From: Herpetosiphon geysericola
GTDB taxonomy: Bacteria > Chloroflexota > Chloroflexia > Chloroflexales > Herpetosiphonaceae
Assembly: GCF_001306135.1 (NCBI RefSeq)
Contig: NZ_LGKP01000040.1
Location: 152,726 to 216,725 of the forward strand
Direction of reading: 5' to 3'
Length of the DNA: 64,000 nucleotides
Both the position numbers and the translations under genes were made by a program. The number at the start of each line of letters is the position of its first letter. Position 1 is the first letter of the stretch. The notes beneath the pieces were generated by a model, which was not told the DNA's origin, made no database searches, and saw only the letters and a program-made list of their open reading frames with translations. This document shows positions 1 to 36,322 of the stretch, in pieces.

Positions 1-1
1 T

Positions 2-6840: not shown

Positions 6841-6879
6841 GCACGAACTGCACGCACTGCGTGCCAGAAAGGAATCAGT

Positions 6880-7731: not shown

Positions 7732-7764
7732 CTACGCGCACGTGCGCAGCCCAAGGGGGTTTGA

Positions 7765-7923: not shown

Positions 7924-7935
7924 GGATAGGCTGCC

Positions 7936-10808: not shown

Positions 10809-10861
10809 GCCACGGTTTCGTAGCCAAGCTGAATCTTTTTATTCCGCGAAAGGATAGCCCC

Positions 10862-11245: not shown

Positions 11246-11368
11246 GTGGTGGAGGGGCCGCACGAATCGGCGATTACGATGCTGAGGTCGCCTTGACCAT
11301 GCGCTTTGGCTGGACCTATGAGCAAATTCGCCAGCAACCGGCTGGCTTTATCGATGAATTAATCGCGC

Positions 11369-14800: not shown

Positions 14801-14807
14801 GGATCGC

Positions 14808-16175: not shown

Positions 16176-16186
16176 GCGAGGCACCC

Positions 16187-17950: not shown

Positions 17951-17956
17951 GTCCGG

Positions 17957-17992
17957 CAAGAGAACCGCTTCATTAATGAGGCGGTTCTCTTG
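17957..17992 (+). terminator. hairpin terminator at the end of the tail operon
   Basis: Perfect 12-bp inverted repeat CAAGAGAACCGC ... GCGGTTCTCTTG with a 12-nt loop. Confidence 0.5.
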
Positions 17993-18493
17993 TGTTCAAG
18001 ATAAATGTCTATAGTCATGTGAGGGGATTCTTGCTATACTCATATGGTGCAGGTGATAAATAAGAGAATAAGACTACCTCGAGCTAAGTTTTGTCTTAAT
18101 AATTCAGCCCAGTAACTATACCAATGTAAATCTAAATTACCTGTTGAATAATCACGACATGAACGAATCCGAGATAGCTCGGAATGAATTTTCAAGCTGA
18201 GTAGTGAGCAAACAGTAGCATTTCATATAAGCAAATAGATATCACTGATATACGAGTAAATCACGCTTGTAGTCATAGCTGTTTAGGCGATCAACTTGGA
18301 ATTTATCCCTCTCTTGAAGTATTAGGAATCACTGGATGATCACGTCGGCTTCTGGTTAGTAAGAGGAGGGCCATCGACAAAACTGCACATCCATCAATTC
18401 ATGGTGTCTATGCCCACCTTCTCCCTAACTACCGACCATAAAATTACTAGACAGAGCCTATTATTAGAAGCTATTTGGTTGTGAGGATCTTAT

Positions 18494-21400
18494 ATGTCAA
18501 TTTCAACATTTTTAAAGAAGGTCGAAGAATTACTCCAGACTGGCGTTGCCACAGAACATAGCTATCGATCAGCACTAGAGGCACTTTTTCTTTCGATGAA
18601 TCATGACATCACAGTTATTAATGAAGCAAAACGCGTATCTCAGGGATCACCTGATCTTATAATCATGAGACAGAATATCTTGATTGGTCATATAGAGGCG
18701 AAGGATGTTGGAAGAAATTTACATAGATTCATAAAAGATAGCGAGCGCTTATCGCCTAAAACATCAGAAGGATTACAACTTAATAGATATCGTAATGGAT
18801 TTTCAAATTTACTTTATACAGATGGACTTTCATGGTATTGGTTTATTGATGGAAACTTACAAAATGATGAACCTATTACTATAGGAAAATGGGACGATAA
18901 GCAAAAGAAAATTACTATATTCTCAGATAAATTCACGCAACTTGAAGCTATTATAAAACATTTTCTGGAAAATACTATAGTTATTTCAAGTCCTAAGCAT
19001 TTAGCACATCGACTTGCATCAATTACTCATTGGCTAAAAGATATTATTGAAAAAGAGGTTAAATTACAAAATTCTCAAGGAGATTTACGTCAACAATTAG
19101 AAGCATTTAAAAAAACACTTTTACCAAAACTAGAGCCAGAAGAATTTGCTGATATGTATGCTCAAACCATAGCATATGGCCTTTTTGCAGCACGTGCTGC
19201 CCAGCCTGAAAATAATTCATTTACACGATTCTATGCAGCACAATCAATACCAAAAACAAATCCTTTTTTACGTTCTTTATTTCAACAAATAGCTGGATAC
19301 GATCTAGATGAATCAATTGCATGGTTAGTAGATGAGTGTGCTTCATTACTTGCACAAACCAATATGATCGAAGTAATGCATGATTTTGGAAAATCAACAC
19401 GTCAAGAAGACCCAGTAATCCATTTCTATGAAACATTTCTACAATCATATGATCCTGCCTTAAAAGAAAAACGAGGAGTTTACTATACACCTGAACCAGT
19501 TGTTAATTTCATTGTTCGGTCAGTTAATTCAATACTCCAAACAGATTTTAATCGTACTATGGGTTTAGCAGATGATAATACAATAATTCTTGATCCTGCC
19601 ACAGGTACTGCTACTTTTCTGTATAGTGCTATTCAACACATCTATCAAGAATTAGTATCTCATGGGTTGCAAGGATCATGGAATAGATATATTAGTGAAA
19701 ATCTGTTTCCTAGAATCTTTGGATTTGAACTATTGATGGCTCCTTACACCATTGCACATTTAAAGTTAGGTATTTTACTTAAAGATTTAGGATACGATTT
19801 TGAAACATCTAATAGATTAGGAGTTTATCTTACAAATACCCTTGCCGATGCACCAGATTTACAATCATCATTTGCATTTGCTAATAAGATTGCAGAAGAG
19901 GGAGAGTCTGCCAATGAAGTAAAACATATGAAAAATGTTATGGTCATTTTAGGAAATCCACCTTATTCTGGACATTCGAGTAATAAGGGGGTATGGATCA
20001 ATAATCTTCTTCACGGAAAACTTGCTGATGGAACATTAACGGAAAATTATTATCAATTTGAAGGAAAACGTCTCGCTGAACGAAATTCTAAGTGGCTTCA
20101 AGATGATTATGTTAAGTTTATTCGTTTTGGTGAATGGCGAATAAGCAAAACTGGAGAGGGTATACTTGCATACATCTGTAACAATTCCTTTCTGGATAAT
20201 CGAACATTTCGTGGTATGAGAGAAAGTTTACTCAATGATTTTGATAAAATATATATTCTTAATCTACATGGTAACAGTAAAAAACGTGAAAAAACACCAG
20301 AAAGAAAAGTTGATGAAAATGTCTTTGACATACAACAAGGCGTTGCAATAAGTATTTTTATAAAGAAAAGAAGTTCTAGTAAGAATCGTGCAACCGTATA
20401 CTATGCTGATGTTTGGGGTAAAAGTGAAGAAAAATACAATTTTCTTGATGAAACAAATTTTGATGATATCAATTGGATAGAAATAGATATGGATAAAAAT
20501 AAAAAATCATATTGGTTTATACCAAGAAACTTTAATAATCAAAAAGAATATAATTTAATGACTTCCATATTAGAAATAATGAAAAACAGTGTTGTTGGTT
20601 TTCAGACTCATAGGGATAAATTAGCAATATCATTTAGTCAATCAGAAATGAAAGAGCGAATGAAAAGATTAATGGATGTTTCCATTAATGATAGTATCTT
20701 ATTTGATGAGTTTAAATTAAGTAAAAAAAGTCCATGGAGTTTATCAGATGCAAGAATGAGAATAATAGAAAATTATGATGAAGGTGATATCATTCCTTGT
20801 TTATATAGACCATTTGATATAAGGTTTATATATTTCAATGATTATATTGTTGATCGCCCAAGAACAGAATTAAAAAAACATGTTAAAGATAAAGAAAATT
20901 TATGCTTGTTAGTAGCAAATCAAATGCAAGACGATATGGCTTATACTCATTTTTTTGTTTCAGAATTGGTTACCATAGATCGAACCTTCAGATGTTCGCG
21001 TGGTGCGGCAATAGTACTACCCCTTTATAACTATGAAAATCCCAGTAAGCCAAATGAAGTCTCAATGTTTGACAAAACTCGAAAATCTTCTTTCAAGCTT
21101 GATTACATAAATATCGTATGTCAGAAACTGAGATTAACATGGATTGATGATGGAAAAGGTGATCAAGATGCAACCCTTGGACCAGAAGATCTATTCCACT
21201 ATATTTATGCCATATTCCATAGTGCAATATACCGTGATCGTTATATCGAATTTCTGGAGACTGATTACCCTCATATTCCACTAACAACTAATAAAACTTT
21301 ATTTTTTTCTCTAATTCAGTTAGGTTCTGAATTGGTAGATTATCATCTTTTGAGACTTCCTGGTTCAGGAGGTGTTGGTGGAAATGGTGGATCAAAAAAA

Positions 21401-21727
21401 CTAGCTCGTCCAAAAAGCGAAGGATTAAGCTTTCCTATTGATGGGAATAATGAGGTTGATGTTATTAGATATAATGCATCGAATGATGAAGAATTAGGCG
21501 AGGTATGGATTAATTCAAATCAAAAATTTATTGGAATCGATCAGGAAACATGGGATATGGAAATAGCAGGATATCATCCATTAGAGAACTGGCTTAAAGA
21601 ACGAGAAAATCGTACTTTATCAATGAATGATATAGTCCATTTTATGCGAATGGTGATTTCCTTAAAAGAAACACGTCGTATTATAGATGAAATAGACGCA
21701 GCAATACCCAATTGGCCAATCGAATAA
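18494..21727 (+). CDS. Type IIG restriction-modification enzyme (MmeI-like fused endonuclease, N6-adenine methyltransferase and target-recognition domain)
   Basis: N-terminal PD-x12-EAK nuclease motif (PDLIIMRQNILIGHIEAKD). MTase motif I LDPATGTATF. YYTPEPVV. Motif IV NPPY (ILGNPPYSG). Long C-terminal TRD. Gene is about 30% GC inside about 58% GC DNA. Confidence 0.7.
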   Translation: MSISTFLKKVEELLQTGVATEHSYRSALEALFLSMNHDITVINEAKRVSQGSPDLIIMRQNILIGHIEAKDVGRNLHRFIKDSERLSPKTSEGLQLNRYRNGFSNLLYTDGLSWYWFIDGNLQNDEPITIGKWDDKQKKITIFSDKFTQLEAIIKHFLENTIVISSPKHLAHRLASITHWLKDIIEKEVKLQNSQGDLRQQLEAFKKTLLPKLEPEEFADMYAQTIAYGLFAARAAQPENNSFTRFYAAQSIPKTNPFLRSLFQQIAGYDLDESIAWLVDECASLLAQTNMIEVMHDFGKSTRQEDPVIHFYETFLQSYDPALKEKRGVYYTPEPVVNFIVRSVNSILQTDFNRTMGLADDNTIILDPATGTATFLYSAIQHIYQELVSHGLQGSWNRYISENLFPRIFGFELLMAPYTIAHLKLGILLKDLGYDFETSNRLGVYLTNTLADAPDLQSSFAFANKIAEEGESANEVKHMKNVMVILGNPPYSGHSSNKGVWINNLLHGKLADGTLTENYYQFEGKRLAERNSKWLQDDYVKFIRFGEWRISKTGEGILAYICNNSFLDNRTFRGMRESLLNDFDKIYILNLHGNSKKREKTPERKVDENVFDIQQGVAISIFIKKRSSSKNRATVYYADVWGKSEEKYNFLDETNFDDINWIEIDMDKNKKSYWFIPRNFNNQKEYNLMTSILEIMKNSVVGFQTHRDKLAISFSQSEMKERMKRLMDVSINDSILFDEFKLSKKSPWSLSDARMRIIENYDEGDIIPCLYRPFDIRFIYFNDYIVDRPRTELKKHVKDKENLCLLVANQMQDDMAYTHFFVSELVTIDRTFRCSRGAAIVLPLYNYENPSKPNEVSMFDKTRKSSFKLDYINIVCQKLRLTWIDDGKGDQDATLGPEDLFHYIYAIFHSAIYRDRYIEFLETDYPHIPLTTNKTLFFSLIQLGSELVDYHLLRLPGSGGVGGNGGSKKLARPKSEGLSFPIDGNNEVDVIRYNASNDEELGEVWINSNQKFIGIDQETWDMEIAGYHPLENWLKERENRTLSMNDIVHFMRMVISLKETRRIIDEIDAAIPNWPIE

Positions 21728-21899: not shown

Positions 21900-22838
21900 T
21901 TATGCCAAAACCTTTTCAAACCATCCTCCCCGGAAAAAACGATGCGGCTGCTGAATTCGTTGGCCTTGCTTCGTATACTGCGTTGTCCAGATCGGCGCAA
22001 GCACGCCCGATTCGCGCACGTCGTCGATGGTCGCAATGAGGAGTTGACTGCCGGGCCAGCCGATTTCCCATGCATCGAGCACAGCGCGTTTCCGCCGTTC
22101 GTTCGGCACCGTAAAAGCAATCAATGGCCAGCTATAGCGCCCTTCCCAATAGCGTGATCGATATAATTCACGATACGAGTTGGCTTTGCCAGTAATGATA
22201 CTCAGTTCCTCGGTGCCCCGATCGATTTCAATGGCATAGAGTTGATCGATCTGTCCTGGCTGTTGGCCAAGACCGAGCCATGGATACAACGATGACCGCT
22301 CACAATCGGGCAGTGTCGCATCAGCCCAGCGCCGCACCACGATAATGCCGTCGGCGCGTGGCCGCGCGGTTGGACCCAAATCCATCTCAATATAACTACT
22401 CATCCCCACAATTCCAGGAACATACGGTAGCGATTGAATCAAGCTGGTGATGACCTCGGCATATTCAATCTGGTGCTCAGCTTGATGTTGGGGATTGAAC
22501 ATCGTTGGAGCCAATCGTTCGCTCCCTTCTTCCAACAACGGAAAGGCCTGCTTGACGATTTCCCAGCCAAGCGGGGTGAGGCTATACAACCGGCCATGGC
22601 GCGTCCAGCCAATTGCACCACGCGGATCATAGCCATGCGATTGAAAGTGCTCACAGTAGGTCAGCAGCTTGGCATCAACCAGTTTGGCCAACGTGCGATT
22701 GACCGTTTGAATCGTCACGGTAAACGGATGGCCCCAGGCCGTGCGGAGGTGGCGCGAGAGCAATCGCCCGAGCCGAGCAATGAGTACAAGCACGTGCATC
22801 TCGATGGGATTCAAGCCAACGGGTGTATGGATAGTCAT
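21900..22838 (-). CDS. winged-HTH protein with replication-relaxation (Replic_Relax, PD-(D/E)xK-clan)-like C-terminal region
   Basis: N-terminal wHTH-like segment (MHVLVLIARLGRLLSRHLRTAW...VNRTLAKLVDAKLL). C-terminal YAIEIDRGTE and ADGIIVV acidic motifs. Assignment from memory of family motifs, not verified. Confidence 0.4.
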   Translation of the reverse strand: MTIHTPVGLNPIEMHVLVLIARLGRLLSRHLRTAWGHPFTVTIQTVNRTLAKLVDAKLLTYCEHFQSHGYDPRGAIGWTRHGRLYSLTPLGWEIVKQAFPLLEEGSERLAPTMFNPQHQAEHQIEYAEVITSLIQSLPYVPGIVGMSSYIEMDLGPTARPRADGIIVVRRWADATLPDCERSSLYPWLGLGQQPGQIDQLYAIEIDRGTEELSIITGKANSYRELYRSRYWEGRYSWPLIAFTVPNERRKRAVLDAWEIGWPGSQLLIATIDDVRESGVLAPIWTTQYTKQGQRIQQPHRFFRGGWFEKVLA

Positions 22839-22859
22839 TCAATCACTCCTCACGACAAA

Positions 22860-23855
22860 TTACGAAAGAACAAGCTTTTCTAAAAGTTTTTTCTTCTCAA
22901 TTATTTCTAATTGTCGCTGTTGGAGGTGTACACGAATAGCATTTTGGGTCGATGAAGCAACGAAGGCTCGATAATATACGGATACACCAAACATTATTCC
23001 ACTACCAAATAAGAAAGCAATAATACTGATGGTAAGAACGCTAGTTACTCCAACTGGTGATTGCTCTACAATACTGAAAAAAGAGAATATTTTATCGCCT
23101 GCGGCAAGAACACCAGCACCCATGGAAACAAGAATGCCCACAAGCGCAGCAACCGTCATTATTAGGCTAATGATGCTCACACTATGCATACGAGTTTCTC
23201 TTCGCTGAATGAGGAGATCTAAGGTTTGTTCCAACTGTATTGTCTCTATCGGATTCAATATTTCATTTAATTCGTCCTGCAAAAAAGTATAAATTTTTTC
23301 AACTGAATAATTATTTTTATTACTATTCATTTCAGCAATAGTAACAAAAATAAAATCCATACTTGTTATAAAGTATATACATATACTAATAAGTAATGAG
23401 ACTATAAAACTTGATATTTCTATAAATATCAAACTAAATATTATAGGATTCATATTTTGAATGTTTATCAAAGAAAAACTGATAGACATTATGTAGAATA
23501 AATATAACTCTATAAGAAGAAATGATTTTATTGCTAATGATCTTTTTATAAAAGAGAAAATATGGTCTCTATAGTGTATAGGCTTGAATACCTTAAAGAA
23601 AGCTATTCCTATAGACACAAAGAAAAAGGTACCCACAAGTATATCTATATTAAAATTCTTGAAAATAGCTACAAATGAGGTTTGACGTGCTATTGAAAAT
23701 GCCGAGAGTATCATTGCAATTACAAAAATCAAGGTATATATAATAATGAAATTACGCCCCTGACGAATTCCTCCTTTCCAGTCCTCATACATTTTTGAAA
23801 TACCTTTTTCTACTTCGTTTTGAAACTGAATACAGAGTTCAAGATTTGTCGCCAT
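22860..23855 (-). CDS. polytopic membrane protein (about 7 TM), AT-rich moron of unknown function
   Basis: Seven strongly hydrophobic 20-25-aa segments with a about 50-aa soluble loop in the middle. About 30% GC. No catalytic motif. Confidence 0.6.
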   Translation of the reverse strand: MATNLELCIQFQNEVEKGISKMYEDWKGGIRQGRNFIIIYTLIFVIAMILSAFSIARQTSFVAIFKNFNIDILVGTFFFVSIGIAFFKVFKPIHYRDHIFSFIKRSLAIKSFLLIELYLFYIMSISFSLINIQNMNPIIFSLIFIEISSFIVSLLISICIYFITSMDFIFVTIAEMNSNKNNYSVEKIYTFLQDELNEILNPIETIQLEQTLDLLIQRRETRMHSVSIISLIMTVAALVGILVSMGAGVLAAGDKIFSFFSIVEQSPVGVTSVLTISIIAFLFGSGIMFGVSVYYRAFVASSTQNAIRVHLQQRQLEIIEKKKLLEKLVLS

Positions 23856-24166
23856 AACGTCCTGCCCTTCATAAAACTATAGCGATCATACGCATGCGCT
23901 AATACATCGTTACACGCTTAATAGGTCTATCCTCTATTCAAAGCATCAAAGGTAGCTGCGCAGCCTGTTAAAGAATGTCGGCACGACCAAATAGCCAGTT
24001 TAGGCCATTCTAGTGGGCTATTTTCTACGTGGCGGTTTGTAGACCATCTGAACGCGATATGAATACGGTTTGAACACGATATGAATGGGCAAGAATGCCG
24101 CAAACATGCCGATCACTAAATGGCCGTGGCAGCGATATTAAGCAAGCCACGGCCTCGAATACTCGA

Positions 24167-24706
24167 TTAAAGTCCACTGAGCCAGTATTCATCGGTTCGC
24201 ACTGGTTCAGGTGGAACAGGACGCTGCCAGTCAGCTAACCGCCTAGCAAGAACACCATCACCCTCACCCATATATTCCCACCACGACGGCGCTCTAGGGG
24301 TGGAAAAGGCATGAATAAACACGGGGATGTGCGGTAAAACGAGCGCTGGCGGAACGGCCATGAGCGCAACCGTCCACAACTGGTGGGATTGTCCGTTAGC
24401 ATCGACGACCGTTTCCGCAAGCAAGGTTTCGAGCGGCGTACTTTGGGGCACACGCAGATACAAACCAAGAAACGGGCAGACCAGCACACTACACAGTGCG
24501 CCGCACAGATAACGCGGTGGTTGCTGGACACGAATCAGAGCAGCATCCAGTTGCTGAAAAAGCGTCATCGTGGCGTGTTGGAGCAAGGGTGCAAGGTCGT
24601 GGGGCTGCATGCTGGGTGGCGACAGCGTAATTTGCACAGTATGCTGGCCGTTATTGGGCAAAGCCAACGTTTCGGTCAAGGTAATGGTCATGGGTATCGT
24701 GGTCAT
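24167..24706 (-). CDS. hypothetical protein
   Basis: GC-rich ORF downstream of and overlapping the FtsK-like gene. Start is uncertain (24706 or 24742). Confidence 0.4.
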   Translation of the reverse strand: MTTIPMTITLTETLALPNNGQHTVQITLSPPSMQPHDLAPLLQHATMTLFQQLDAALIRVQQPPRYLCGALCSVLVCPFLGLYLRVPQSTPLETLLAETVVDANGQSHQLWTVALMAVPPALVLPHIPVFIHAFSTPRAPSWWEYMGEGDGVLARRLADWQRPVPPEPVRTDEYWLSGL

Positions 24707-24725
24707 GAGCGAGATTCCTTTCTGC

Positions 24726-25835
24726 TTAAGCACCGAGATCAAGCACCTGCTTGACCTGGCGAATTTGAGTTAAACGGCGCGTGCGTTTGCCACCCAAGCT
24801 GTCAATAATTTCGTTGCCACTTTTGCCTGCAAGAACGAGCTTGGTAATCAGGATGACATCGGTCAGCATGGCCTCGTCAACCAGGTTCTCATCGCTAGTT
24901 CCCATGGTTCCAAGCGGGGAATCACCGGCTATATCGCCCATGGAATCGGGAACTTGCCAGAGGCGGCGCGGGTCAATCGGGCGAGTGGACAACATCCACG
25001 CGGGTTCACGATCGCACCAAAACCATTGACAATTCCATTCAATCGCTGCGGGCCACGGAGCGAGCAACGGCGACTTCATTTTCTCCAACGCTCGATCGCC
25101 AATGGCAATCCACAGCAGGTTATCGAGCGCTTCGCTATCGCCTTCAATGCCCAGCGGTTTGACCAAGGTGGTTTGGGTTACCAGAATCAGATGCATCCGA
25201 TACTTAGCTGCTTGGCGCAGCATTTCGCCCACAAAGCGTTGGGCCACCGGCACTTTGGGTTTCGCTGCCGAGCCATCTTCACCATGCACCTTGCTCATCA
25301 CATCGGGCGCTTCTTCCAACACCACCGTGATGGGGTCAAACGTTTCGACACCCGTGGCCGCAGCGGCCTTGCGTCGCCCCAGTTCGGCGAGCAGTGCTTT
25401 CATCACGCGATTGATCGCAGGATAGTCATAGACTTGCGGCAAACCACCATAGTCATTGGGTCGCGCATGGGAATTGAGAATCACCAGCTGGTGGCCCTCC
25501 AGGGCGCGTAAATAGGTCAACGCCATGCTCAGCACCGACTTACCTTGCCGCGAAGGGCCAGCAATCCCGATATGCGGACGCTTGGCCAAGGTGTCGAGCA
25601 ACATGGGCCACGAATAGGTTGGCAAGTGTGCAACATCGGGTTCAACTGGTTCATCAACCACCGGTCGCGCCACGACCACTGTCCGCGCCGCAGCCGCAGA
25701 ACGCGGGGCAGCGGGGGCAGCGGCAGGGCGGCGTTCGCTGGCCGGTGTGCGCGCGTGCCACCAGAGAAACGTCCCAACAAAACTACACGCAAAGAGAAAA
25801 ATCAGCGGATATAGCCAAGGCGAATTAATATCCAT
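24726..25835 (-). CDS. FtsK/SpoIIIE-family DNA translocase (TraB/Tra-like of conjugative elements)
   Basis: N-terminal TM helix. Walker A GIAGPSRQGKS. Walker B VVLEEAPD. FtsK signature RMHLILVTQ. RBS AGGAG before the ATG. Confidence 0.7.
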   Translation of the reverse strand: MDINSPWLYPLIFLFACSFVGTFLWWHARTPASERRPAAAPAAPRSAAAARTVVVARPVVDEPVEPDVAHLPTYSWPMLLDTLAKRPHIGIAGPSRQGKSVLSMALTYLRALEGHQLVILNSHARPNDYGGLPQVYDYPAINRVMKALLAELGRRKAAAATGVETFDPITVVLEEAPDVMSKVHGEDGSAAKPKVPVAQRFVGEMLRQAAKYRMHLILVTQTTLVKPLGIEGDSEALDNLLWIAIGDRALEKMKSPLLAPWPAAIEWNCQWFWCDREPAWMLSTRPIDPRRLWQVPDSMGDIAGDSPLGTMGTSDENLVDEAMLTDVILITKLVLAGKSGNEIIDSLGGKRTRRLTQIRQVKQVLDLGA

Positions 25836-26274
25836 GGGGATGCTCCTGTGGAGTGCGGCCAAAGGCCAAATATTCTGGCCACCGCGCCGAGACAATACCA
25901 AGGATGAGACCGGCTCCCCATGCCAGGGCAATGGCTGGCATGCCAGATGTCAGTTTGTAGGCGATGGGATAAAACAACCATTCGCACCACTTGTAGGCCG
26001 TAATCATGGCATCGGGAGCGAGGAAACACCCATAGCCCCACGCGGTTCGGCGCAAGGTATAGAGTTGGCCAAGGAAAAGAAAGAGCGCCAGCCCAAGACC
26101 CGCGAGGATGCCACGATAATCGCGAATACCCCAGAGCCAGTGTTGAAAGTCACTCAGCGTCGAGACCGTGGTGACAATGCTATTGCCCCAGCCCAACGTG
26201 CAGGCGATTCCTTTGACCAATTTGCGACTCGGTTCAAGGCGGCGAAGATCAAATAACACATTCGATGTGGTCAT
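25825..26274 (-). CDS. small membrane protein (Spd-like spread protein candidate)
   Basis: 149 aa with 3-4 TM segments. Overlaps the start of the FtsK-like gene by 11 nt, so operon partner. Confidence 0.45.
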   Translation of the reverse strand: MTTSNVLFDLRRLEPSRKLVKGIACTLGWGNSIVTTVSTLSDFQHWLWGIRDYRGILAGLGLALFLFLGQLYTLRRTAWGYGCFLAPDAMITAYKWCEWLFYPIAYKLTSGMPAIALAWGAGLILGIVSARWPEYLAFGRTPQEHPHGY

Positions 26275-26386
26275 CGTGTTCTCCTTTGGTATACTAGCGC
26301 TGCATCACTTTCGTGTTCTCCGGTGATGCACGCCGCCGATGCTGATTTCATCGGCGGTTTGTGTGTCAAAAGAAGCGTGGTGGTTC

Positions 26387-26780
26387 CTAGACATCTTGAT
26401 ACTCGGGATCAGGCGGCAAATCGAGCGAATCGGGCAGCGGAACCGGAGTTTGTTCAACTGGTGGTGTACCACGGTTCAACCCATGGTCAACAACGGGTGC
26501 ACTGCGGTTCAACCCATGGTCAACACTAGGGGAACGACTGTGCAACGCGTGTTCAACAGGTTTCATCAGGACTGCGAGTAAGGTGTCCCGCACGACGTGA
26601 TCATCAAGCCGCGCAACGCTGGCCAACGCATCGGCAGTGAACAACTGGATGTCTTTGCCACAGGTATGCAGACCGATAATCACGAGGGCGCGGAGCACGG
26701 CAGACTCGTTGCCTAGGCTGGCAATCATCGCACTGAGCACGCTCGAGCTGCGGGTCGTCAGTCGTTCATCAAAACTCATT
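26387..26780 (-). CDS. hypothetical protein downstream of parM (possible partition adaptor)
   Basis: 131-aa ORF whose start overlaps the parM stop (ATGA-type coupling). Contains a protein-level repeat VDHGLNR x2 encoded by DNA direct repeats. Confidence 0.35.
26472..26525. repeat. two 21-bp direct repeats CGGTTCAACCCATGGTCAACA, plus a third GTTCAAC-containing copy at 26551-26557
   Basis: Exact copies at 26472-26492 and 26505-26525. Confidence 0.6.
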
Positions 26781-27765
26781 GGCCAAACTCCTCGTAGCGC
26801 CGCGCACGGCGGGCATAACCACGCGCGATCGCGGTTTGCGGATTGGGGGCAACGATCGTTTGGCGAAAACGCTGTTGAATCGCCTGAACCAGCATGGGCA
26901 TTTCCGCACCACCCCCAGCCACGATAATCGCCGCCAGCTTCGCACCGCTGCCCCACGCCCGAACTAGCGCATCGGCGACTTGGTGGCCATTGGCCAACCA
27001 TGGCCGATCCCAGCCGGTTGGCAGATCGCATTCCTCACCCGCGACCTCCACATAGCCAGCACGCACCGCGCGATCGACTTCGTGTAAGGTCAGATCAAGG
27101 TTGTAACGCCCACTAATTTTGGTTTGCAGCTGCTGGAGTGGATTGGCGCTTCCGAGTTCAAAGCTAATCGCACTTTCCGGCACAACATTCATCGCTTGCA
27201 CAATGCAGGCATCGACGGTGTTATGGCCCAAGTCAATCACGCCAACGCGACTCAGCTCATAGCCGCTGCGGGCAATGGCTCCGCTCGGGTCGAGCAAGAC
27301 CCCATACAACGCGCCGAGCGGTTCACTAATCACCCGAATACCGGTTTTGAGCGTCGTCCCGTGGTAATACTGGGTCACAACCGCATCCCGCAGCCGCGAC
27401 CCCAAGGCCACCGCTAAGTCGCGTTCGCCGGACCAGGCGGCGGGCAGTCCGGTAACACATGCACCACCGCAGGGCTGCTTGAGGCGCTGTAAGGCTCCTT
27501 TGACGAGCGCAGGGATAATGTGGCGATCGTAGAGTCGTTGTTGCGAGCGGAGCGAGATCGGTGCGGGATGCAGCAAGGCATCCTCGCCCGTCCACCACAG
27601 CGTGCCGTGGACTTCAACCGTGGGCACATCGTGCAGATTGCCATCGGTGCTACTGGCCGGAGCCACCAGCGCAGGAAAGATAATGGTTTCTTCGTGATCG
27701 CCGGTATTGATCGTATATTTCACATAGCCATGGCCAATATTGGCCCCATGGGCAATAGCAGTCAT
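26776..27765 (-). CDS. parM: ParM/StbA-family actin-like segregation ATPase
   Basis: 329 aa. Actin-fold phosphate-binding motifs IDLGHNTVD and IIVAGGGAE. RBS GAGGAG before the ATG at 27765. Confidence 0.7.
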   Translation of the reverse strand: MTAIAHGANIGHGYVKYTINTGDHEETIIFPALVAPASSTDGNLHDVPTVEVHGTLWWTGEDALLHPAPISLRSQQRLYDRHIIPALVKGALQRLKQPCGGACVTGLPAAWSGERDLAVALGSRLRDAVVTQYYHGTTLKTGIRVISEPLGALYGVLLDPSGAIARSGYELSRVGVIDLGHNTVDACIVQAMNVVPESAISFELGSANPLQQLQTKISGRYNLDLTLHEVDRAVRAGYVEVAGEECDLPTGWDRPWLANGHQVADALVRAWGSGAKLAAIIVAGGGAEMPMLVQAIQQRFRQTIVAPNPQTAIARGYARRARRYEEFGQ

Positions 27766-27841
27766 AGAACACTCCTCTACGATGGATGGGCGTTGAATCC
27801 CATCCATCAAGAACACATCAGTGAATCGACCCGACGCAGCC

Positions 27842-28981
27842 TTAAGCAACCGATTGGATGGCACTGGTGGTGAGATCATGCGTCCACCAGTGATCAAGGT
27901 GCGTCGCAATCCACGACCGCAAATCCACGCCACACTGCACGGCCATCGTGCCAAAGTCGTGGGGATCGGGCCGCATGCGGGCAACCTCTTTGCCTTTGAA
28001 AATATCGAGCCAATACGCAGCGGCTTTATCACCGGCTGCATCGGCATCGGTTGCAATGAAGAGTGGCTGGCAGAGGCTGTACTGAACGAGCCAGCGAAAG
28101 CCACGACCTTGGGTGGTTCCAATCGCTGCCACCCCGCTGAGCGGCTGGCCATGGCGTTCAAATTGGCCAAGGGCTTGTTGGGCCACCAACGCATCGATGG
28201 GGCCTTCCACCAGAATGCCAGGGCGACCAGCGTGGAAGGTATCGATGCCATACGGCACATTGCTGCTTCCAGCAATCGTCACGTATTTCATACCCTCATC
28301 GCGGGGCGTGGTTTGGCGAATCGAGAGCTTCCAGAGCTGGCCATCACAAAACCATGGGATGACATAGCCAGCGGGCAACCACACGCCATCTTTATCGGGA
28401 TCAGTCAATCCCCACTTGTGCAGTGGACGGTAGAGCGGCTTGGGGTTATAGCCAATTGCAGCGGTGCGAAGCGTGTGATCGGTCAGGCCACGCTGGTGTA
28501 AGTAGCTGCGTGGCGAGGACTGACTATCCCCATCCTTCCACAACATATCAACCGAGTAGCCAAGGAAACTCAGAGCGGCCTGCTGCCACGTCGCTGAGGG
28601 CGGCTCACAGGCATTCGGTGGCTCAGGATCAGGGACTGCTGCTGTAAGCGAAGTCGATTGGGTCAGCGTCAGCCCCAGTGTTGTAAAGACCCCTTTGATC
28701 AAGTTCTTCCAATCAGGATGATCCTTGGTAGGAATGCTGCCGTGGTCGCGCAGGAAAACAAAATCAACATCAGAGGCCCATGGCTGGCCATCGCGACAAC
28801 TGCGACACCACCAGCGGCCACCATTGCTATCCCCATGTGGTTGCACCCGAAAGCGATCCTTGCCACCACAGAGCGGACAGGCTCCAGCCCATTCACCGCC
28901 ATTGGTCGCGGCCACTTTGCGCAGGGCGGTGCGCTGGCCAACCAACGAAAGAAACGCATCGCCCGAAAGATGTTCAATCAT
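27842..28981 (-). CDS. DNA primase (CHC2 zinc finger plus Toprim, DnaG-like)
   Basis: CPLCGG...RFRV...WWCRSC zinc ribbon. Toprim ILVEGPIDAL and IATDADAAGD. RBS GGAGG. Confidence 0.8.
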   Translation of the reverse strand: MIEHLSGDAFLSLVGQRTALRKVAATNGGEWAGACPLCGGKDRFRVQPHGDSNGGRWWCRSCRDGQPWASDVDFVFLRDHGSIPTKDHPDWKNLIKGVFTTLGLTLTQSTSLTAAVPDPEPPNACEPPSATWQQAALSFLGYSVDMLWKDGDSQSSPRSYLHQRGLTDHTLRTAAIGYNPKPLYRPLHKWGLTDPDKDGVWLPAGYVIPWFCDGQLWKLSIRQTTPRDEGMKYVTIAGSSNVPYGIDTFHAGRPGILVEGPIDALVAQQALGQFERHGQPLSGVAAIGTTQGRGFRWLVQYSLCQPLFIATDADAAGDKAAAYWLDIFKGKEVARMRPDPHDFGTMAVQCGVDLRSWIATHLDHWWTHDLTTSAIQSVA

Positions 28982-28996
28982 TGAAACCTCCCAAGA

Positions 28997-29267
28997 GAAG
29001 TGTCATGAAGTGTCATAGAAGTGTCATGCTGCCTAAACTGTCGGTTTAGGGCTTTCCAATGGGATAAAACGGAGAAGTGTCATAGTGTCATAAGTGTCAT
29101 GTATTTTTTCAGTCGTGTGGGTTCTCTCCAGCCTCGCGTACATGTTCCATATTAAATTGGACATGTCCCCTTATGACACTATGACACTTCTCAAGAAAGG
29201 CGCTCTGGGAGTGGATTTTTAGCGTCATAAACCGTTTATGACACTTCATGACACTTCTGACACTTCT
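28997..29267. repeat. iteron array, putative replication origin
   Basis: Six direct copies of (GA)AGTGTCAT at 28997-29100 and five inverted copies ATGACAC(TTC) at 29173-29267. They flank a 70-bp central region. Confidence 0.6.
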
Positions 29268-30862
29268 CATGCGCTATATCTCCACAATTGCATCGTTCGA
29301 CCATTGGCGGCTTTGGTCTCAAGCACGTCAATTTGGCCAGCGAGGCGTAAGACTTCTAAGATTTCGGTGATTTCTTTTTTGGATTGATTGGTCTGGCGAC
29401 ACAGATCGCGCACCGTCAATCCCGAAAGCGACTCTTTCAGAACGGCCAGCAGCTTATCGCCCAGCTTGGTTTCTTCACTCTGAATCCCATCGCTCCAAAT
29501 GCGGTGCAAGTCGCTGCGCCAGCGCTCGACAATCGTGATCGCACGTTTGAGATGATCGAGCTGCATCACCACCGGTAATTCGGGGCAGTCCATCGCGGCC
29601 AGAATCATGGCCACCCGCAGGACGTGCCCAGGGAAACGGGCATAACTGGCATAGAGCGTGTCAGGTAGCCCATTGTTCGGCAGATCAAAGCGCAACACCT
29701 TGTCATAGCGCTTCCACAACGTCATCACGCCAGGCGCGAGCCGAATCGAACTGGGCGGATGCTCGTTATAAATCCGCACAAAGCGCTTGATATTCTCTTC
29801 CGGCACATCATCGACCAATTCGGCCTCTGGCTTCGGAAAGAGCGCATCGAGCGCCTGCAAGTCCTGAATCAAGCGTTCAGGCATCACCAGCTCGTCAGGA
29901 AACTCGGCATAGCATGGTGGGGCATCGGGAATCAGAATCGCGAAGCGACTCCACAACCCTTCGTCCCACAGCTTTTCGCTGCGCAAGTGATCTTCGATAT
30001 TCTTGGGCGTGGTTGCGCCCAGAAACGAGAGACTGGCATCGCGAATCGTGGTGCGGCCATGGGTGATCGTTTCATGGGCCAAATACTCAGGGTTATCAAA
30101 CAACTTGAGTAACAGCGAGAGCAGCTCGGCCATATACTCTTTTTTCATATCGCTGAACAAGAACCCTGCTTCGTCGAGTAGCCATGCCCGTTGAGCCGCT
30201 TGGGCACGGGCAAGCAGCCATTGCTCACGGTCATAATCACTGTAGCTGTCCAGCTTATCGGGAATGACGGTCGAAAACTGCTGAAGCAGCGACTGGGGCG
30301 TGCTTTTGTCGGGTAAGAGCAAGTGGCCAAGGCCAGCGCGCCGTAGCACCCGCTCGACAACCTTCATCGCGGTCGATTTGGCATAGCGCCCTGGTGGGGC
30401 AACAAATAGCGCATAAATATTCGGGTAATAGTAAGTTTCACCAATTTGGAGATACAACCGCCGCGCGATCACGGTGGCGGCAAGGAAGAGACCCGCCGCC
30501 TCATGGAAAATCGGTGGCGTGACCGGACTCGCTTGGCTGGCATAGTCGATAAATGTATCAAGCCACTGCCCACATACGCCCTGCTGCCGGATGGTTTTCG
30601 TAAGTTCACTCGGCAGCGGCGGCATAGTTCGTAAGACGGTTGGGGCAGGCTGGTCAACGAGCAAGGCCGCCACCCGACTATCCACCCGAATCGCGGTTTC
30701 CAGTGCGGTTTGCACGGCAGGCGCACCGCCATGCTCAAAGGCATACACTAAACTTTGCATCATGGCTAACCATTCGCCCCAATCACGGGTCAGGTCAATC
30801 GTCTGGCCTGCGAGCAACTGCTGCAGCGCAGTGCGCACCTGCACATAGAGTGGAGTTGTCAT
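29267..30862 (-). CDS. DUF3987-like replicative helicase/loader protein with C-terminal wHTH
   Basis: Degenerate Walker A APPGRYAKST. Walker B LLDEAGF. About 530 aa. Downstream of the integrase, as in many tRNA-integrated islands. Confidence 0.55.
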   Translation of the reverse strand: MTTPLYVQVRTALQQLLAGQTIDLTRDWGEWLAMMQSLVYAFEHGGAPAVQTALETAIRVDSRVAALLVDQPAPTVLRTMPPLPSELTKTIRQQGVCGQWLDTFIDYASQASPVTPPIFHEAAGLFLAATVIARRLYLQIGETYYYPNIYALFVAPPGRYAKSTAMKVVERVLRRAGLGHLLLPDKSTPQSLLQQFSTVIPDKLDSYSDYDREQWLLARAQAAQRAWLLDEAGFLFSDMKKEYMAELLSLLLKLFDNPEYLAHETITHGRTTIRDASLSFLGATTPKNIEDHLRSEKLWDEGLWSRFAILIPDAPPCYAEFPDELVMPERLIQDLQALDALFPKPEAELVDDVPEENIKRFVRIYNEHPPSSIRLAPGVMTLWKRYDKVLRFDLPNNGLPDTLYASYARFPGHVLRVAMILAAMDCPELPVVMQLDHLKRAITIVERWRSDLHRIWSDGIQSEETKLGDKLLAVLKESLSGLTVRDLCRQTNQSKKEITEILEVLRLAGQIDVLETKAANGRTMQLWRYSA

Positions 30863-30972
30863 GTATCTATCCTCGGTGCTGCGGGAGGATACTCACCACA
30901 GCACACTACACTTACAAAACTGGGAAGGACTAGGATGCTGCCCCAATCACCGGCGGCGATTGGGGCACCTGA

Positions 30973-31278
30973 TTACGTCGACTCTGGCGCTTTGTCTTCG
31001 CCTTGCGCTGCATCAATCAAGAGGCGTTGAATTCGTTCCTGGTTGGCCTCGATCTCTGCGAGCAGCAGGGCGATCTTGGTCAGGATAAGTTCGACGGCTT
31101 CGGGATTGTTCAAGTGGTAGCGTTGATGCACCACTTGGTTGAGCAACTCTTTGGCTCGGATAGCTTGCTTCGACGATTGCGCGGCGTTCGCCAGCGCTTC
31201 GAGTCGATGTTCGTTCACCACGTTCGGCCAACGCAGTCGTCGCCGTGGCATCCACATCCCTTTCTTGGTGGTCGCCAT
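30973..31278 (-). CDS. small helical protein (possible excisionase/regulator)
   Basis: 101-aa ORF with sensible helical sequence. Overlaps the tail of the next ORF in another frame. Confidence 0.35.
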   Translation of the reverse strand: MATTKKGMWMPRRRLRWPNVVNEHRLEALANAAQSSKQAIRAKELLNQVVHQRYHLNNPEAVELILTKIALLLAEIEANQERIQRLLIDAAQGEDKAPEST

Positions 31279-31582
31279 TCACGAGGTCAAAGACAACCGC
31301 ACGGGTTTGCTGGCGACGTTTGATCATGCGCCAGACTTGCCACGTAATAATGACCCCACCACCAATGCCAAAGCTGGCGATGATCTGCTGCTCATACTGG
31401 GGCCAGCTGGCGTTCGGCGTAAGGCGGATGGCGATCCCTGCGGCAGTCACGCACAACAGGGTTCCGACAACCACTTCAATCCACGTCCAATCTGGTTCCA
31501 AGTAGTGCTTGTAATGCTCAAGCATCACGGCATACAGCATCGTGGCCATGGCCAAACCGATACCAATATTGATGGGCATAGA
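31013..31582 (-). CDS. small membrane protein (3' extent uncertain)
   Basis: ATG at 31582. Three hydrophobic helices in the first about 100 aa. The C-terminal about 80 aa of this frame look like low-complexity out-of-frame translation of the 30973-31278 ORF. Confidence 0.35.
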   Translation of the reverse strand, partial: SMPINIGIGLAMATMLYAVMLEHYKHYLEPDWTWIEVVVGTLLCVTAAGIAIRLTPNASWPQYEQQIIASFGIGGGVIITWQVWRMIKRRQQTRAVVFDLVNGDHQERDVDATATTALAERGERTSTRSAGERRAIVEASYPSQRVAQPSGASTLPLEQSRSRRTYPDQDRPAARRDRGQPGTNSTPLD

Positions 31583-31675
31583 TCCCCCTATCAGCAGGTT
31601 TTTTGTCAAAAACCTGCTGACTTTCTGTACACTTTTTCCCTTGTTTCTACCGGGATAGGTGGGCATACTGGAGGC

Positions 31676-32539
31676 TTATAAGCATGACTCCACCTTCTCG
31701 AGGAGGTTCACGCCTTGCCGATTTTGGGTCGCCTCATGGGATGAGAGTTGTGCATAGTGCAGAGACATTTGAATCGTTTCATGGCCCATCAATACCCGTA
31801 GACTTTCTGCATCAAGGCCTTTCTTGATCAGTTCGCGGGCGAAGGTGGCACGAAAGGAGTGAATCAAACGCCGCACATCATTGCGGATTTCCGCGTCGGA
31901 GGCTAAGCGATCGAAGCTCTGGTGTACGCCGCTAATCGTCAGCGTTTTTTGCTGGCGATGGCTGACAAACAACGCAGGGTTCGTATCCGTCCGACTGGCG
32001 ATGTAGGTTCGAAGGACTTCTTGGGTCACGGATGAAATCCAGATATATCGATCCTTGCTGCCTTTGCCAAGAATCATGGCGCAGCCTTCCGAGTCAAAGC
32101 TGGTCCGACGGAGTTGAATCAGTTCACTGACCCGAACGCCGGTATCCAGTAAGACACAGAGCATGGCTTTTTCACGAAGCTCGGCAACCAGCAGGAGGCG
32201 CTTAATTTGATCCATCGTGTAATGGGCAGGTAAGCGCTTGGGTAATCGGGGTTTGAGTTTATCGGTATTTACTGGCTGAATATAGCCTTCTTCAGCAAGC
32301 CAGCGCACGAGGATGAGTGCATCGTTGAGATAGCTATAGTGGCTGGCAATGCTTAAGTTTTGTTGGGCTAAGTACGCACTGTAGGCCCGCAATAACGCCC
32401 GACTGAGCACCTGATTCGGTTGCTCAAGCACCCAAGCGCCAAAGCGTCCTAACCGAATTCGGTAGGTGGTGATGGTTGCAGGGCTGCGGCGTTCGGCGAC
32501 TTTTGCGGACAAATATTCTTCAATCCATTGGCTAATCAT
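31676..32539 (-). CDS. int: tyrosine recombinase/integrase (XerC/D-like)
   Basis: Catalytic residues R (LLDTGVRVSEL), K, HxxR (HSFRATF), H..Y (LMGHETIQMSLHY). Lies 0.9 kb from the att duplicate. Confidence 0.85.
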   Translation of the reverse strand: MISQWIEEYLSAKVAERRSPATITTYRIRLGRFGAWVLEQPNQVLSRALLRAYSAYLAQQNLSIASHYSYLNDALILVRWLAEEGYIQPVNTDKLKPRLPKRLPAHYTMDQIKRLLLVAELREKAMLCVLLDTGVRVSELIQLRRTSFDSEGCAMILGKGSKDRYIWISSVTQEVLRTYIASRTDTNPALFVSHRQQKTLTISGVHQSFDRLASDAEIRNDVRRLIHSFRATFARELIKKGLDAESLRVLMGHETIQMSLHYAQLSSHEATQNRQGVNLLEKVESCL

Positions 32540-33460
32540 ACGAAATGACCTCGATCTATCGCGTTATCCCCGAAGGGATAGCGTGTGCGTTCGCAAATAC
32601 TCGACTCGAGGCCGCGCGGAGCGGAAAGAGTATGTGATGGGATACCTCTGCAGGTGGTGCTAAAGGGGTATCTCATTACAGGTCTTCAGACACACTGCGT
32701 TAAGGGGTGCTTGCACAACCAGCAATGGCGGTCGCCATTTTTTGGGTATAGCAAAGCAACCTACACGTTTGGTATTGGCAAATGGCTTTGGCTAGGTTGA
32801 TCTTCCAGAATTGGAAGCAACACAAAGCCAACCGTCATTCACCAATCGGTGTGAGGAAGACAGGAAACACACTGAGTCAAGGTCATTGGTATAACACTCA
32901 TCCATCGTAACCTTGCTTTGTGTCGATGGAGAGTGATGATCGTCAATCTCCGAACGATCATCTTTATGTATTAGGAAATGCCGGAGCGCGTTAATGGTTG
33001 AAGGCCGCAAGCGGCGTTCAGGAATAGGGAAGTCGGTGGGCAGGATTCCCAAGACGACATATGGTAAGCTTCGTGGATTCAATGATCCTGAATGCCCATG
33101 AAGCGTGGTAGATAAGCAGCGTGTCTTTGCATCAGTCCTGCTTATCTAACAAGTGGCGTGTCTAGCATCAACCACTTGTATTGGGTTTCTAGCAACGAGT
33201 GCATGCCAGATCCAAGGGAAGGCTATTGCTTTAATAAAGCACCCGATAACAATAGCCATGTTGGAAAGCTCGATGTGTCGAGTCAAGTTCGGGGTTAGCG
33301 TACCATATGCCAACCATGCAGAACGTTAACGCTGTATAAGAAAATGCTTTTGTAGTGACAGTGCATTGCAGCAATGTGGTGTTGCTGGCGAGCAGAAGCC
33401 AATAATCCTCCTTCAAAGCAGCCTGGTGAAACAGGGTGCTTGCTTTGCATTTTAGGCAAA

Positions 33461-33506
33461 CCTGTTAATCAATGGGTCCTAGGTTCGAGTCCTAGTCAGG
33501 GAGCCA
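33461..33506 (+). other. 46-nt duplicate of tRNA-Asn 3' half (anticodon loop to CCA), candidate attR core
   Basis: CTGTTAATCA...GTCCTAGGTTCGAGTCCTAGTCAGGGAGCCA is identical over 31 nt (and nearly over 46) to the 3' half of the tRNA gene 21 bp downstream. No 5' half is present. Confidence 0.6.
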
Positions 33507-33527: not shown

Positions 33528-33603
33528 TCCCTGATAGCTCAGTTGGTAGAGCGGTTGACTGTTAATCAGCATGTCCTAGGTTCGAGTCCTAGTCAGGGAG
33601 CCA
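33528..33603 (+). tRNA. tRNA-Asn (GTT)
   Basis: Cloverleaf with anticodon loop CTGTTAA. Close to the E. coli tRNA-Asn sequence. CCA encoded. Confidence 0.85.
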
Positions 33604-36106: not shown

Positions 36107-36322
36107 GGATACCTCCTGCATGTTACCTAGCTTCAACTGAAGCCACGTAACTAATTAGCAATGATGAGGCCATAGAGTCAATAGCATATGCGCAGCATAG
36201 ACCATAAGTCCTTCTAGGAGGGCATCAATCCAACCAATTGGGCTGCTCGCGCTGAAGGTAAATCGATTCAAAATGATGATATGGTGCAATTGCAGTAGCC
36301 TTTACGATTACAATTTACCTAG

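Follow-up and report, generated by a model that had tools for sequence, protein, structure and literature searches.

A minus-strand gene set with an FtsK-like ATPase is probably the early arm of a tRNA-integrated Herpetosiphon siphovirus prophage

FtsK-like proteins encoded by phages are widespread. Siphoviruses and plasmid-prophages of Bacillus combine a Replic_Relax protein with Xer recombinases and a partition motor, ParM or ParA, that has an adaptor; FtsK/SpoIIIE proteins are present in some (PMC9658697, PMC7685451, PMC8026635, PMC6669507). In the integrated prophage CGP3 of Corynebacterium glutamicum, as summarised in one of these papers, AlpC, an actin-like protein, and its adaptor AlpA move phage DNA after excision (PMC8026635). 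Proteins of the Replic_Relax family form the MOBC relaxase class as named by CONJscan (PMC5357655). Here, we analysed a 64-kb stretch of Herpetosiphon geysericola DNA (hereafter the window), and in particular the minus-strand gene set at 21900-33506, which encodes a tyrosine integrase, replication proteins, a ParM-like actin, a membrane-anchored FtsK-like ATPase and a Replic_Relax protein. An earlier reading of the sequence only had taken this set for a module of an integrative and conjugative element (ICE), either fused to a phage or inserted beside one. We conclude that the gene set is very probably the early, replication and maintenance arm of a single temperate siphovirus-type Herpetosiphon prophage.

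This conclusion rests on the gene content of the element, a single pair of attachment (att) sites, the co-inheritance of the arm with structural genes, and the exchange of the integrase together with the att site. One gene order, i.e. integrase, DUF3987 protein, primase, ParM, small open reading frames (ORFs), the membrane protein mem149, FtsK-like ATPase, Replic_Relax, variable cargo and convergent tail genes, was found in H. aurantiacus and H. llansteffanensis at the same pair of partial core and tRNA-Asn. The window was nearest to H. llansteffanensis (91-94% nucleotide identity), followed by H. aurantiacus DSM 785 (~86%). The same order, joined to tail genes, also occurs in a sister phage (assembly GCA_020161265.1 and matching metagenomic contigs), with proteins that are 65-92% identical, and 80-92% in the case of the replication and tail proteins. 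The integrase of the sister phage is 26% identical to the integrase of the window (int1) and lies in inverted orientation. Moreover, its site adjoins tRNA-Phe, with the homology junction ~20 nt inside the 3' end of tRNA-Val, and the corresponding attB is empty in the window (tRNA-Val at 59815-59890, next to tRNA-Phe at 59737-59812). A swap of the integrase with the att site, while both arms stay joined, gives what appears to be the picture of one mobile unit. A distant metagenomic contig with 68% GC (L104) retains homologues of ParM (46% identity), its candidate adaptor (34%), mem149 (42%), the FtsK-like ATPase (30%), Replic_Relax (27%) and the tape measure protein (35%). There, genes for an HTH_36 protein, ParM, the adaptor-like ORF, mem149, the ATPase and ParB are followed by a convergent Replic_Relax gene and by genes for SPP1_Dit and the tape-measure homologue. 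The arm is thus joined to structural genes in three Herpetosiphon genomes, in the sister phage and in the 68%-GC contig, which contradicts the claim that it is an ICE module and not a phage early region.

The right border of the element is marked by the attR core (33461-33506, plus strand), which on reading the sequence repeats the 3' part of tRNA-Asn over 46 nt, from anticodon loop to 3' end. Outside the element lies an intact host tRNA-Asn (33528-33603, plus strand; ARAGORN), the next gene of a tandem tRNA-Asn array. A 31-nt core occurs exactly twice in the window, against zero expected, and the pair of core and tRNA-Asn is also present in loci L002, L003, L004 and L009 of relatives. The 87-nt 'tRNA-Lys' reported by ARAGORN at 33420-33506 is a pseudo-tRNA, in which phage arm sequence is fused to the att core. 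Because a third copy of the core is absent from the 64-kb window, the window shows the right flank of the island only. The window's own copy has its left end beyond position 1, and the left arm was read from relatives. Homology to H. llansteffanensis (94% nucleotide identity) begins exactly at position 405; by its composition, the stretch at 1-404 (plus strand) is the AT-rich end of a variable cargo slot, and it is without homology to the relatives' loci L001, L010 and L011. These three loci run on for 5.5-10 kb to attL past the point that matches position 405. The window's prophage most likely likewise extends left of position 1, with a second recombinase, regulators and attL there.

In H. 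llansteffanensis (L010), the left end has two intact tandem tRNA-Asn genes (4224-4396), 5.5 kb left of the equivalent of position 405, and in H. aurantiacus (L011) a copy of the att core lies ~10 kb to the left. The element thus has int1 beside the core in the window, and a core or tRNA-Asn at the far end in both relatives. From attL to the late genes, both species have small ORFs in the left arm, along with a low-GC cargo slot and the gene of a second tyrosine recombinase. The second recombinase (340 aa, SAM_1 and Phage_integrase; 7897-8919 in L010, 5405-6430 in L011) is 93% identical in amino acids between the two species and 25% identical to int1; it might resolve multimers, act as an inversion switch or provide a second specificity of integration. 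The left arm of H. llansteffanensis also carries three genes with a Cro/CI-type helix-turn-helix (HTH), at the place of which H. aurantiacus has a low-GC ORF without family match. In the window and in L010, L011, L001, L003 and L009, a search that allowed 6-7 mismatches in 30 nt detected no att copy inside the element. These results bear out the single att and integrase system of the sequence-only reading, in which the 46-nt core pairs with tRNA-Asn, and they speak against its suggestion of two elements in tandem, as neither the window nor the H. aurantiacus and H. llansteffanensis copies hold an internal att site. The whole prophage appears to measure ~40 kb and to be integrated in one gene of the tandem tRNA-Asn array. 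IMG/VR lists the H. aurantiacus DSM 785 copy as a 34.3-kb provirus (IMGVR_UViG_2508501111_000002), with ~86-90% identity to the window element. The H. llansteffanense genome paper mentions only an 'incomplete prophage of 16.2 kbp', detected by PHAST (PMC6210107). We found no published description of the gene content or biology of this prophage in the literature searched.

All genes of the arm are on the minus strand. Int1 (31676-32539), a short Xer-like tyrosine recombinase, matched Pfam Phage_integrase (7.7e-25), the PHROG 1 integrase (2.2e-34) and XerA/XerD-like NCBIfam models, and appears to be the integrase that sets the tRNA-Asn specificity. Downstream of int1, a 188-aa membrane protein with two predicted transmembrane (TM) helices (31013-31579; hydropathy) is 95% identical in H. 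aurantiacus and matched no family in permissive family scans and NCBIfam. A candidate P-loop helicase or initiator of the DUF3987 family follows (29267-30862; Pfam DUF3987 1.5e-22; PHROG 3022/14296 'DNA primase' 1.5e-23), which has a weak C-terminal HTH signal and is 85-89% identical in relatives. The primase (27842-28981) is of the DnaG type, with a zinc ribbon and a Toprim domain (Pfam Zn_Ribbon_Prim 5.5e-7, Toprim_2 7.8e-7; PHROG 47 DNA primase 1.4e-19).

Between the helicase and primase genes lies an origin-like iteron array (28992-29271) with ~10-12 copies of (A)AGTGTCAT, arranged in two inverted blocks that flank an AT-rich centre with ACATGT palindromes. Of the 11 exact copies of AGTGTCAT in the window, 10 fall within 28999-29255 (six on the plus and four on the minus strand), compared with 1.35 expected by chance. 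The array has kept its position in L003, L009 and L006, and its layout and central GGGGACATGTCCAATTTAATA element are constant across these loci. The unit itself varies by lineage: GTGTCAT in the window, GTGTCAC in H. aurantiacus and H. llansteffanensis, and a degenerate GTCAC in the sister phage. Lineage-specific iterons at a fixed position would fit an initiator and its sites that evolve together. No replication genes were recognised among the left-arm ORFs of L010 and L011 that were scanned with Pfam, and the minus-strand arm appears to be the only recognised replication module of the element. A scan of the arm for sigma-70 promoters and terminators gave counts at chance level and was uninformative on operon structure. 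Hence, we favour a single prophage, because there is no internal att site, the arms are joined across lineages, and the left part is without recognised replication genes.

The FtsK-like protein (24726-25835, 369 aa from a conserved ATG) begins with a TM helix and a Pro/Ala linker, continues with a P-loop domain and ends in a three-helix HTH (residues 321-368). Its motifs include Walker A (G93-x4-GKS100), Walker B (VVLEE175) and 'LILVTQT'. The single sequence gave no match in Pfam (including FtsK_SpoIIIE), PHROGs or NCBIfam, also at permissive thresholds, and none by tblastn against 50,697 phage genomes; a PDB search with a shallow profile of five sequences returned noise only. Four clusters of close homologues were found, all from Herpetosiphon or Chloroflexi. 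A locus search of IMG/VR and metagenomes with an alignment of eight sequences returned Herpetosiphon loci that we had identified before, and no others. A HMMER scan of 1.84 billion representatives with a family profile retrieved 581 relatives at E <= 1e-3. Seventy-two relatives were scanned, of which 44 touch FtsK_SpoIIIE, 38 DUF87/HerA, 31 AAA_10 and 12 TrwB_AAD_bind. Furthermore, in the PDB a profile of 91 sequences matched EccC (4nh0, 3e-16) and FtsK (2iuu, 1.8e-14), and the regions of Walker A, Walker B and 'LILATQ' are aligned. By these motifs and profile matches, the protein is established as a membrane-anchored ATPase of the FtsK-HerA superfamily.

Its proposed likeness to the actinomycete Tra proteins stood in part. 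The family profile aligned with pIJ101 Tra (from NC_001387) at 98.1% probability in hhalign (E 8.6e-14, 271 columns), collinear over the ATPase domain and the C-terminal HTH, but the similarity is no stronger than that to FtsK, EccC or TcpA, and orthology with TraB is not established. The phage side of the family is well represented: 71 of the 91 family members match PHROG 2666 and 24 match PHROG 1358 'FtsK/SpoIIIE-like protein', and in BFVD the ATPase model is best matched by similarly long phage proteins, among them one of a Nodularia phage and entries under the name 'DNA translocase FtsK [Siphoviridae]'. Two other roles were considered for the protein and rejected. A role as packaging ATPase was discarded given the presence of a conventional TerL, and defence was discarded as its main role, since the PADLOC similarity is at P-loop level only (mad8 1.6e-6, with no stretch above threshold alone).

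We viewed nine loci with more distant ATPase relatives (L014-L017, L104-L106 and the cyanobacterial plasmid loci L108 and L109), and saw no type IV secretion gene in any of them. In L017 (ATPase 48% identical), an integrase with 37-39% identity to int1, DNA methylases, a 163-aa ORF and the ATPase are followed by convergent capsid genes. L105 combines a Cro-type HTH protein, a 175-aa ORF, the ATPase and a VapE-type primase-helicase, while L014 and L015 have a small ORF, the ATPase, ParA, RusA, DUF5131 or HNH, and a Dam methylase. Plasmid matches of the ATPase were restricted to filamentous cyanobacteria. In Nostoc sp. PCC 7120, the 390-aa homologue is the largest of the five genes of the 5.6-kb plasmid pCC7120zeta (L109), on which no Rep gene is annotated; the second such plasmid is pPg_01 of Pseudanabaena galeata (L108). 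The sequence-only reading held the gene set to be typical of ICEs, and named two findings that would argue otherwise, namely a complete early or lysogeny region with its own integrase to the left, or FtsK-like and membrane genes that match phage proteins instead of conjugative TraB/Spd families. Essentially both were encountered, in the form of the second recombinase of the relatives with the Cro/CI genes of H. llansteffanensis, and of the PHROG matches of the ATPase family. Moreover, relatives of the ATPase occur in phage early regions, and comparable kits have been described in Bacillus siphoviruses (PMC9658697, PMC7685451, PMC8026635).

The genes upstream of the ATPase form a cassette with it. 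ParM (26776-27765, 329 aa) is a predicted actin-like protein (Pfam ALP_N and MreB-like_C; PHROG 691 'partition protein' 1.5e-24; NCBIfam PRTRC_D 8e-17, ParM 5.8e-11); the match lies in an ORF at 26776-28275, of which 26776-27765 is the true gene. Directly downstream, a 130-aa protein (26387-26779), which matched no family in Pfam and NCBIfam, is a candidate ParR-type adaptor by its position and by its similarity to the equivalent gene of L104. A ParM-like gene with a small downstream gene, as in the plasmid-prophage kit, is thus present, and the small gene may encode the adaptor of this ParM. Three 33-nt tandem repeats at 26451-26549, in the 3' half of the 130-aa gene, encode a repeated VDHGLNR and could act as a centromere-like site. 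Next follows mem149 (25825-26274), a 149-aa membrane protein with two TM helices by hydropathy; its stop codon overlaps with the first codon of the ATPase. L104, L017, L014, L015 and L105 likewise have a small ORF (143-175 aa) in front of the FtsK-like gene. The sequence-only reading had compared the small membrane proteins to Spd proteins, which we could not substantiate: mem149 showed no similarity to pIJ101 SpdB (E 2.1), a weak negative given that Spd proteins are poorly conserved. Downstream of the ATPase gene, a lineage-specific protein of ~179 aa with two predicted TM helices (24167-24706) is present in H. aurantiacus and H. llansteffanensis and absent from the sister phage (L006).

The last gene of the arm (21900-22838) encodes a Replic_Relax protein (PF13814), with a PD-(D/E)XK nuclease fold and an N-terminal winged HTH (Pfam 8.2e-9; MarR_2 4.5e-4). 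Its Pfam score of 36.3 bits exceeds the gathering cutoff of 25.3, which places it in this relaxase family, with nicking as a predicted activity only; a PHROG match to 'replication initiation by nicking' was weak. Replic_Relax proteins with 90-92% identity occur in four other Herpetosiphon proviruses of IMG/VR (L099, L101, L102, L103), which are without the arm's ATPase, ParM, primase and DUF3987 genes and have unrelated genes beside Replic_Relax, such as the Prok-E2_D, Prok-JAB, ThiF and DUF3102 genes upstream of it in L099. In the sister phage, Replic_Relax is 92% identical, compared with 65% for the adjacent ATPase. This pattern points to a recent exchange of the single gene between phages. 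Conversely, L017 has the ATPase without Replic_Relax. In total, the gene identities given by the sequence-only reading for the minus strand of 21900-33506 were borne out by Pfam and PHROG matches, the hydropathy of the membrane proteins, the iterons and FtsK-superfamily profile matches. Of the profile searches that it had proposed, those for Replic_Relax, DUF3987 and ParM were confirmed, and Pfam FtsK_SpoIIIE gave no match.

In the life cycle that we propose for this single prophage, int1 would recombine the 46-bp core to excise and integrate, and the circular genome would replicate from the iteron array with the DUF3987 helicase and the DnaG-type primase. Movement or segregation of the replicating genomes would fall to the ParM-like actin and the candidate adaptor, with precedents in plasmid-prophages and in CGP3 with its AlpC and AlpA. 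At the membrane or as the septum closes, mem149 and the FtsK-like ATPase would act on the double-stranded DNA of the phage, and would thereby keep copies from being trapped or lost as the cells of the filament divide; the second Xer-like recombinase might aid this pair by resolving multimers. Replic_Relax would serve as a sequence-specific nuclease or winged HTH protein in the initiation or processing of replication, and low-GC defence genes would occupy three variable slots. If the element is indeed a single prophage, we give the segregation role of the ParM, mem149 and FtsK-like cassette an even chance.

Several points weigh against our conclusion. Excision, replication, virions and any plasmid state of the prophage are predictions from sequence, and the roles suggested for Replic_Relax, the 130-aa protein, mem149 and the FtsK-like ATPase derive from position and homology. 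Among solved structures, the ATPase is best matched by TcpA, which couples DNA to conjugation; its family profile also aligns with pIJ101 Tra and relatives occur on cyanobacterial plasmids, so that a role in transfer is conceivable. Replic_Relax and the FtsK-like gene are each found without the other, and the cassette is therefore not one obligate unit. Finally, a Tn3-family insertion disrupts the prophage of H. llansteffanensis, and some copies are thus presumably defective.

These points bear on the alternatives to different degrees. In a chimera of a phage and an actinomycete-type ICE (AICE), the ATPase would be a TraB-type pore that works with Spd-like proteins, and the element would spread by virions as well as by conjugation. 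The combination of TM helix, FtsK-type ATPase and C-terminal HTH, as in TraB/Tra, the hhalign result with pIJ101 Tra, the translational coupling of the small membrane protein gene to the ATPase gene, and the relatives on plasmids of filamentous cyanobacteria are all compatible with it, as are the multicellular filaments of the host, a growth habit thought to suit AICE transfer (PMC3429521). We nevertheless regard such a chimera as very unlikely. The ATPase resembles Tra no better than it resembles FtsK, EccC or TcpA, mem149 is without SpdB similarity, and Pfam and NCBIfam scans of the element gave no RepSA, RepAM or Prim-Pol initiator, no Kor/GntR regulator and no Nudix Pif. Moreover, no replication genes of the phage were recognised outside the arm, tail genes always accompany it, relatives of the ATPase occur in phage early regions without other transfer genes, and AICEs have been reported from Actinomycetales only (PMC3429521). 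A mobilisable prophage, with Replic_Relax as MOBC-type relaxase and the FtsK-like protein as TcpA-type coupling protein, would use a resident conjugative type IV secretion system (T4SS). The inclusion of Replic_Relax in the MOBC class (PMC5357655) and TcpA as best structural neighbour of the ATPase speak for this. However, in streptococcal integrative mobilisable elements (IMEs) the partner of MOBC proteins is VirD4 and never TcpA (PMC5357655). The two genes also come apart, as the four proviruses have Replic_Relax at 90% identity without the ATPase and L017 has the ATPase without Replic_Relax, and neither a T4SS component, in the loci examined, nor an origin of transfer was seen. The probability that we assign to it is therefore small, slightly below that of the chimera.

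That two independent elements lie in tandem at tRNA-Asn, with a phage to the left of an integrative plasmid-like element, is extremely improbable, even though the host's tRNA-Asn array offers several attB copies, the full element carries two tyrosine recombinases, and both GC content and strand change at ~18-22 kb. The search for att-like copies inside the element was negative, the junction between the arms is a variable cargo slot and not an att site, the left part is without a recognised replication module, and the same arms are joined in the sister phage, at another tRNA and with another integrase, and in the distant contig. It is also unlikely that the prophage is a decaying or domesticated relic, inherited vertically and kept for its defence cargo, with a non-functional arm. 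The occupation of the same site in three species, the transposon in the H. llansteffanensis copy and the defence genes in three slots would agree with a relic. All long ORFs in the window are intact, however, and the prophage is 86.6% identical to that of H. aurantiacus in nucleotides, compared with 77-80% for flanking host genes. The prophage is thus more conserved than the host genes beside it, which implies recent mobility rather than an old relic, and so does the sister phage, which is found at another site that is empty here.

The remainder of the left half of the window confirms the siphovirus late region that the sequence-only reading had recognised. The late arm (405-17950, plus strand; PHROG and Pfam; 85% identity to H. 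aurantiacus tail genes) has TerL, portal, HK97-type capsid, tape measure and tail genes in canonical order, together with a lysis gene. Its genes, all on the plus strand, encode an amidase for lysis (1738-2490; Pfam Amidase_2 1.7e-24, endolysin), a small terminase candidate (2944-3471), TerL (3377-4915; PHROG 1.9e-23), the portal (about 4936-6302; PHROG 2.3e-29), a scaffold (6253-6840; PHROG), the HK97-type major capsid protein (6880-7731; PHROG 267, 8.6e-77), a head-tail adaptor (7936-8523; PHROG), a tail protein (9792-10808), a tape measure candidate, which is a 1143-aa ORF in the position of the tape measure (11369-14800), and distal tail or fibre proteins (14697-17950). In L001 of H. llansteffanensis, an insertion of ~9.2 kb (11357-20531) lies shortly after the capsid gene and replaces the stretch that matches 8237-8878 of the window. 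The inserted genes encode a Tn3-family transposase, metal efflux, methyltransferases and another integrase, and this prophage copy is presumably defective.

The composition of the window changes in blocks, from ~59% GC at 1-18 kb to ~34% at 18-22 kb and ~52-58% at 22-33 kb, with a fall to 32% at 23-24 kb, and host DNA from 33.5 kb onward has ~50%. The slot between the two convergent arms is filled by a low-GC Type IIG restriction-modification gene (18494-21727, plus strand; Pfam Type_ISP_C 1.6e-69, N6_Mtase; PADLOC REase_MTase_IIG 1.7e-250), a defence cargo. Elsewhere, this slot holds an MmeI-like enzyme (H. llansteffanensis, L009) or SLFN/AlbA_2 and a fusion of methyltransferase and Mrr (sister phage, L006). 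A protein with six TM helices (22860-23855, minus strand; GC 32%; composition and hydropathy) is variable cargo outside the conserved module, with 28% identity to its H. aurantiacus counterpart and absent from L009 and L006. Together with positions 1-404, these genes occupy three low-GC slots (29-36%) in a prophage of 56-60% GC, which look like prophage defence hotspots. To the right of the element, the host gene at 36388-38169 (GC 33%) encodes an AAA ATPase similar to OLD, GajA and AriA (PADLOC AriA 2e-19, Old 1.3e-15). This gene forms a small defence island of its own, just to the right of the tRNA-Asn/EamA locus, and H. aurantiacus has it too. The host protein at 34880-36136 (minus strand) has a signal-like N-terminus and a long C-terminal run of TPTATV/TPTATI repeats.

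These results remove a false lead, as the island is in all probability neither a phage-ICE hybrid nor a tandem of two elements, and they describe a lineage of temperate phages of Herpetosiphon (Chloroflexota), with att sites at tRNA-Asn and tRNA-Val, a co-varying iteron origin, three defence slots and two tyrosine recombinases. The cassette of ParM, adaptor candidate, small membrane protein and FtsK-like ATPase, often with Replic_Relax, has been kept together down to 27-46% protein identity, and offers a route to the function of phage FtsK-like proteins. H. aurantiacus DSM 785, a public type strain, carries the element, which makes it experimentally approachable. It is a bold and very doubtful idea that the cassette is a phage-borne device for translocating double-stranded DNA across the septa of the Herpetosiphon filament. 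If it were true, lysogeny could spread along the filament without virions in a TraB-like manner, and the relatives on plasmids of filamentous cyanobacteria might do likewise.

How does the element compare with the known systems? TcpA is the best structural neighbour of the ATPase, but the systems of pCW3, the Tn916/ICEBs1 family and streptococcal IMEs differ from the element, in which no partner T4SS and no adjacent relaxase of the MobT or rolling-circle replication type were seen. TcpA proteins also pass the Pfam FtsK_SpoIIIE model (PMC5357655), which the Herpetosiphon ATPase does not. With the actinomycete elements pSAM2, pIJ101 and pSVH1, composed of Int, Rep, an FtsK-like Tra/TraB, clt and Spd, the prophage shares a tyrosine integrase that uses the 3' end of a tRNA gene, an FtsK-type ATPase that is anchored in the membrane and carries a C-terminal HTH and, presumably, replication after excision. 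It differs from them in its full set of virion genes, its type of Rep and a host outside Actinomycetales, and Pfam scans found no Spd, Kor or Pif homologues and no GntR or Nudix gene inside the element. At 369 aa, its ATPase is about half as long as Tra (648 aa). AICEs have clt-type repeats, and the sole strong repeat array here is formed by the iterons that separate the helicase and primase genes.

To our knowledge, CGP3 has not been described with a pair like mem149 and the FtsK-like ATPase. By the description available to us (PMC8026635), it resembles the Herpetosiphon element in being an integrated prophage with an actin-like protein and an adaptor, for which there is a candidate here. The IMG/VR provirus of H. 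aurantiacus DSM 785 is the same element, as a machine prediction only. All prophage copies seen were chromosomal, at tRNA genes, and in this location and in its filamentous Chloroflexota host the Herpetosiphon phage is unlike the Bacillus siphoviruses. It also differs from them in its replication by DUF3987 protein and Toprim primase with iterons, and in an FtsK-like protein too divergent for the Pfam FtsK_SpoIIIE model. In contrast, its overall plan is that of vB_BtS_B83, Novomoskovsk/Bolokhovo, Izhevsk and the plasmid-prophages of the B. cereus group, with a siphovirus module, a partition motor, a small adaptor, Replic_Relax and Xer-family recombinases (the XerA/XerD-like int1, and the second recombinase in L010 and L011). 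As in these Bacillus siphoviruses, late and maintenance genes are encoded on opposite strands (PMC6669507, PMC9658697, PMC7685451, PMC8026635).

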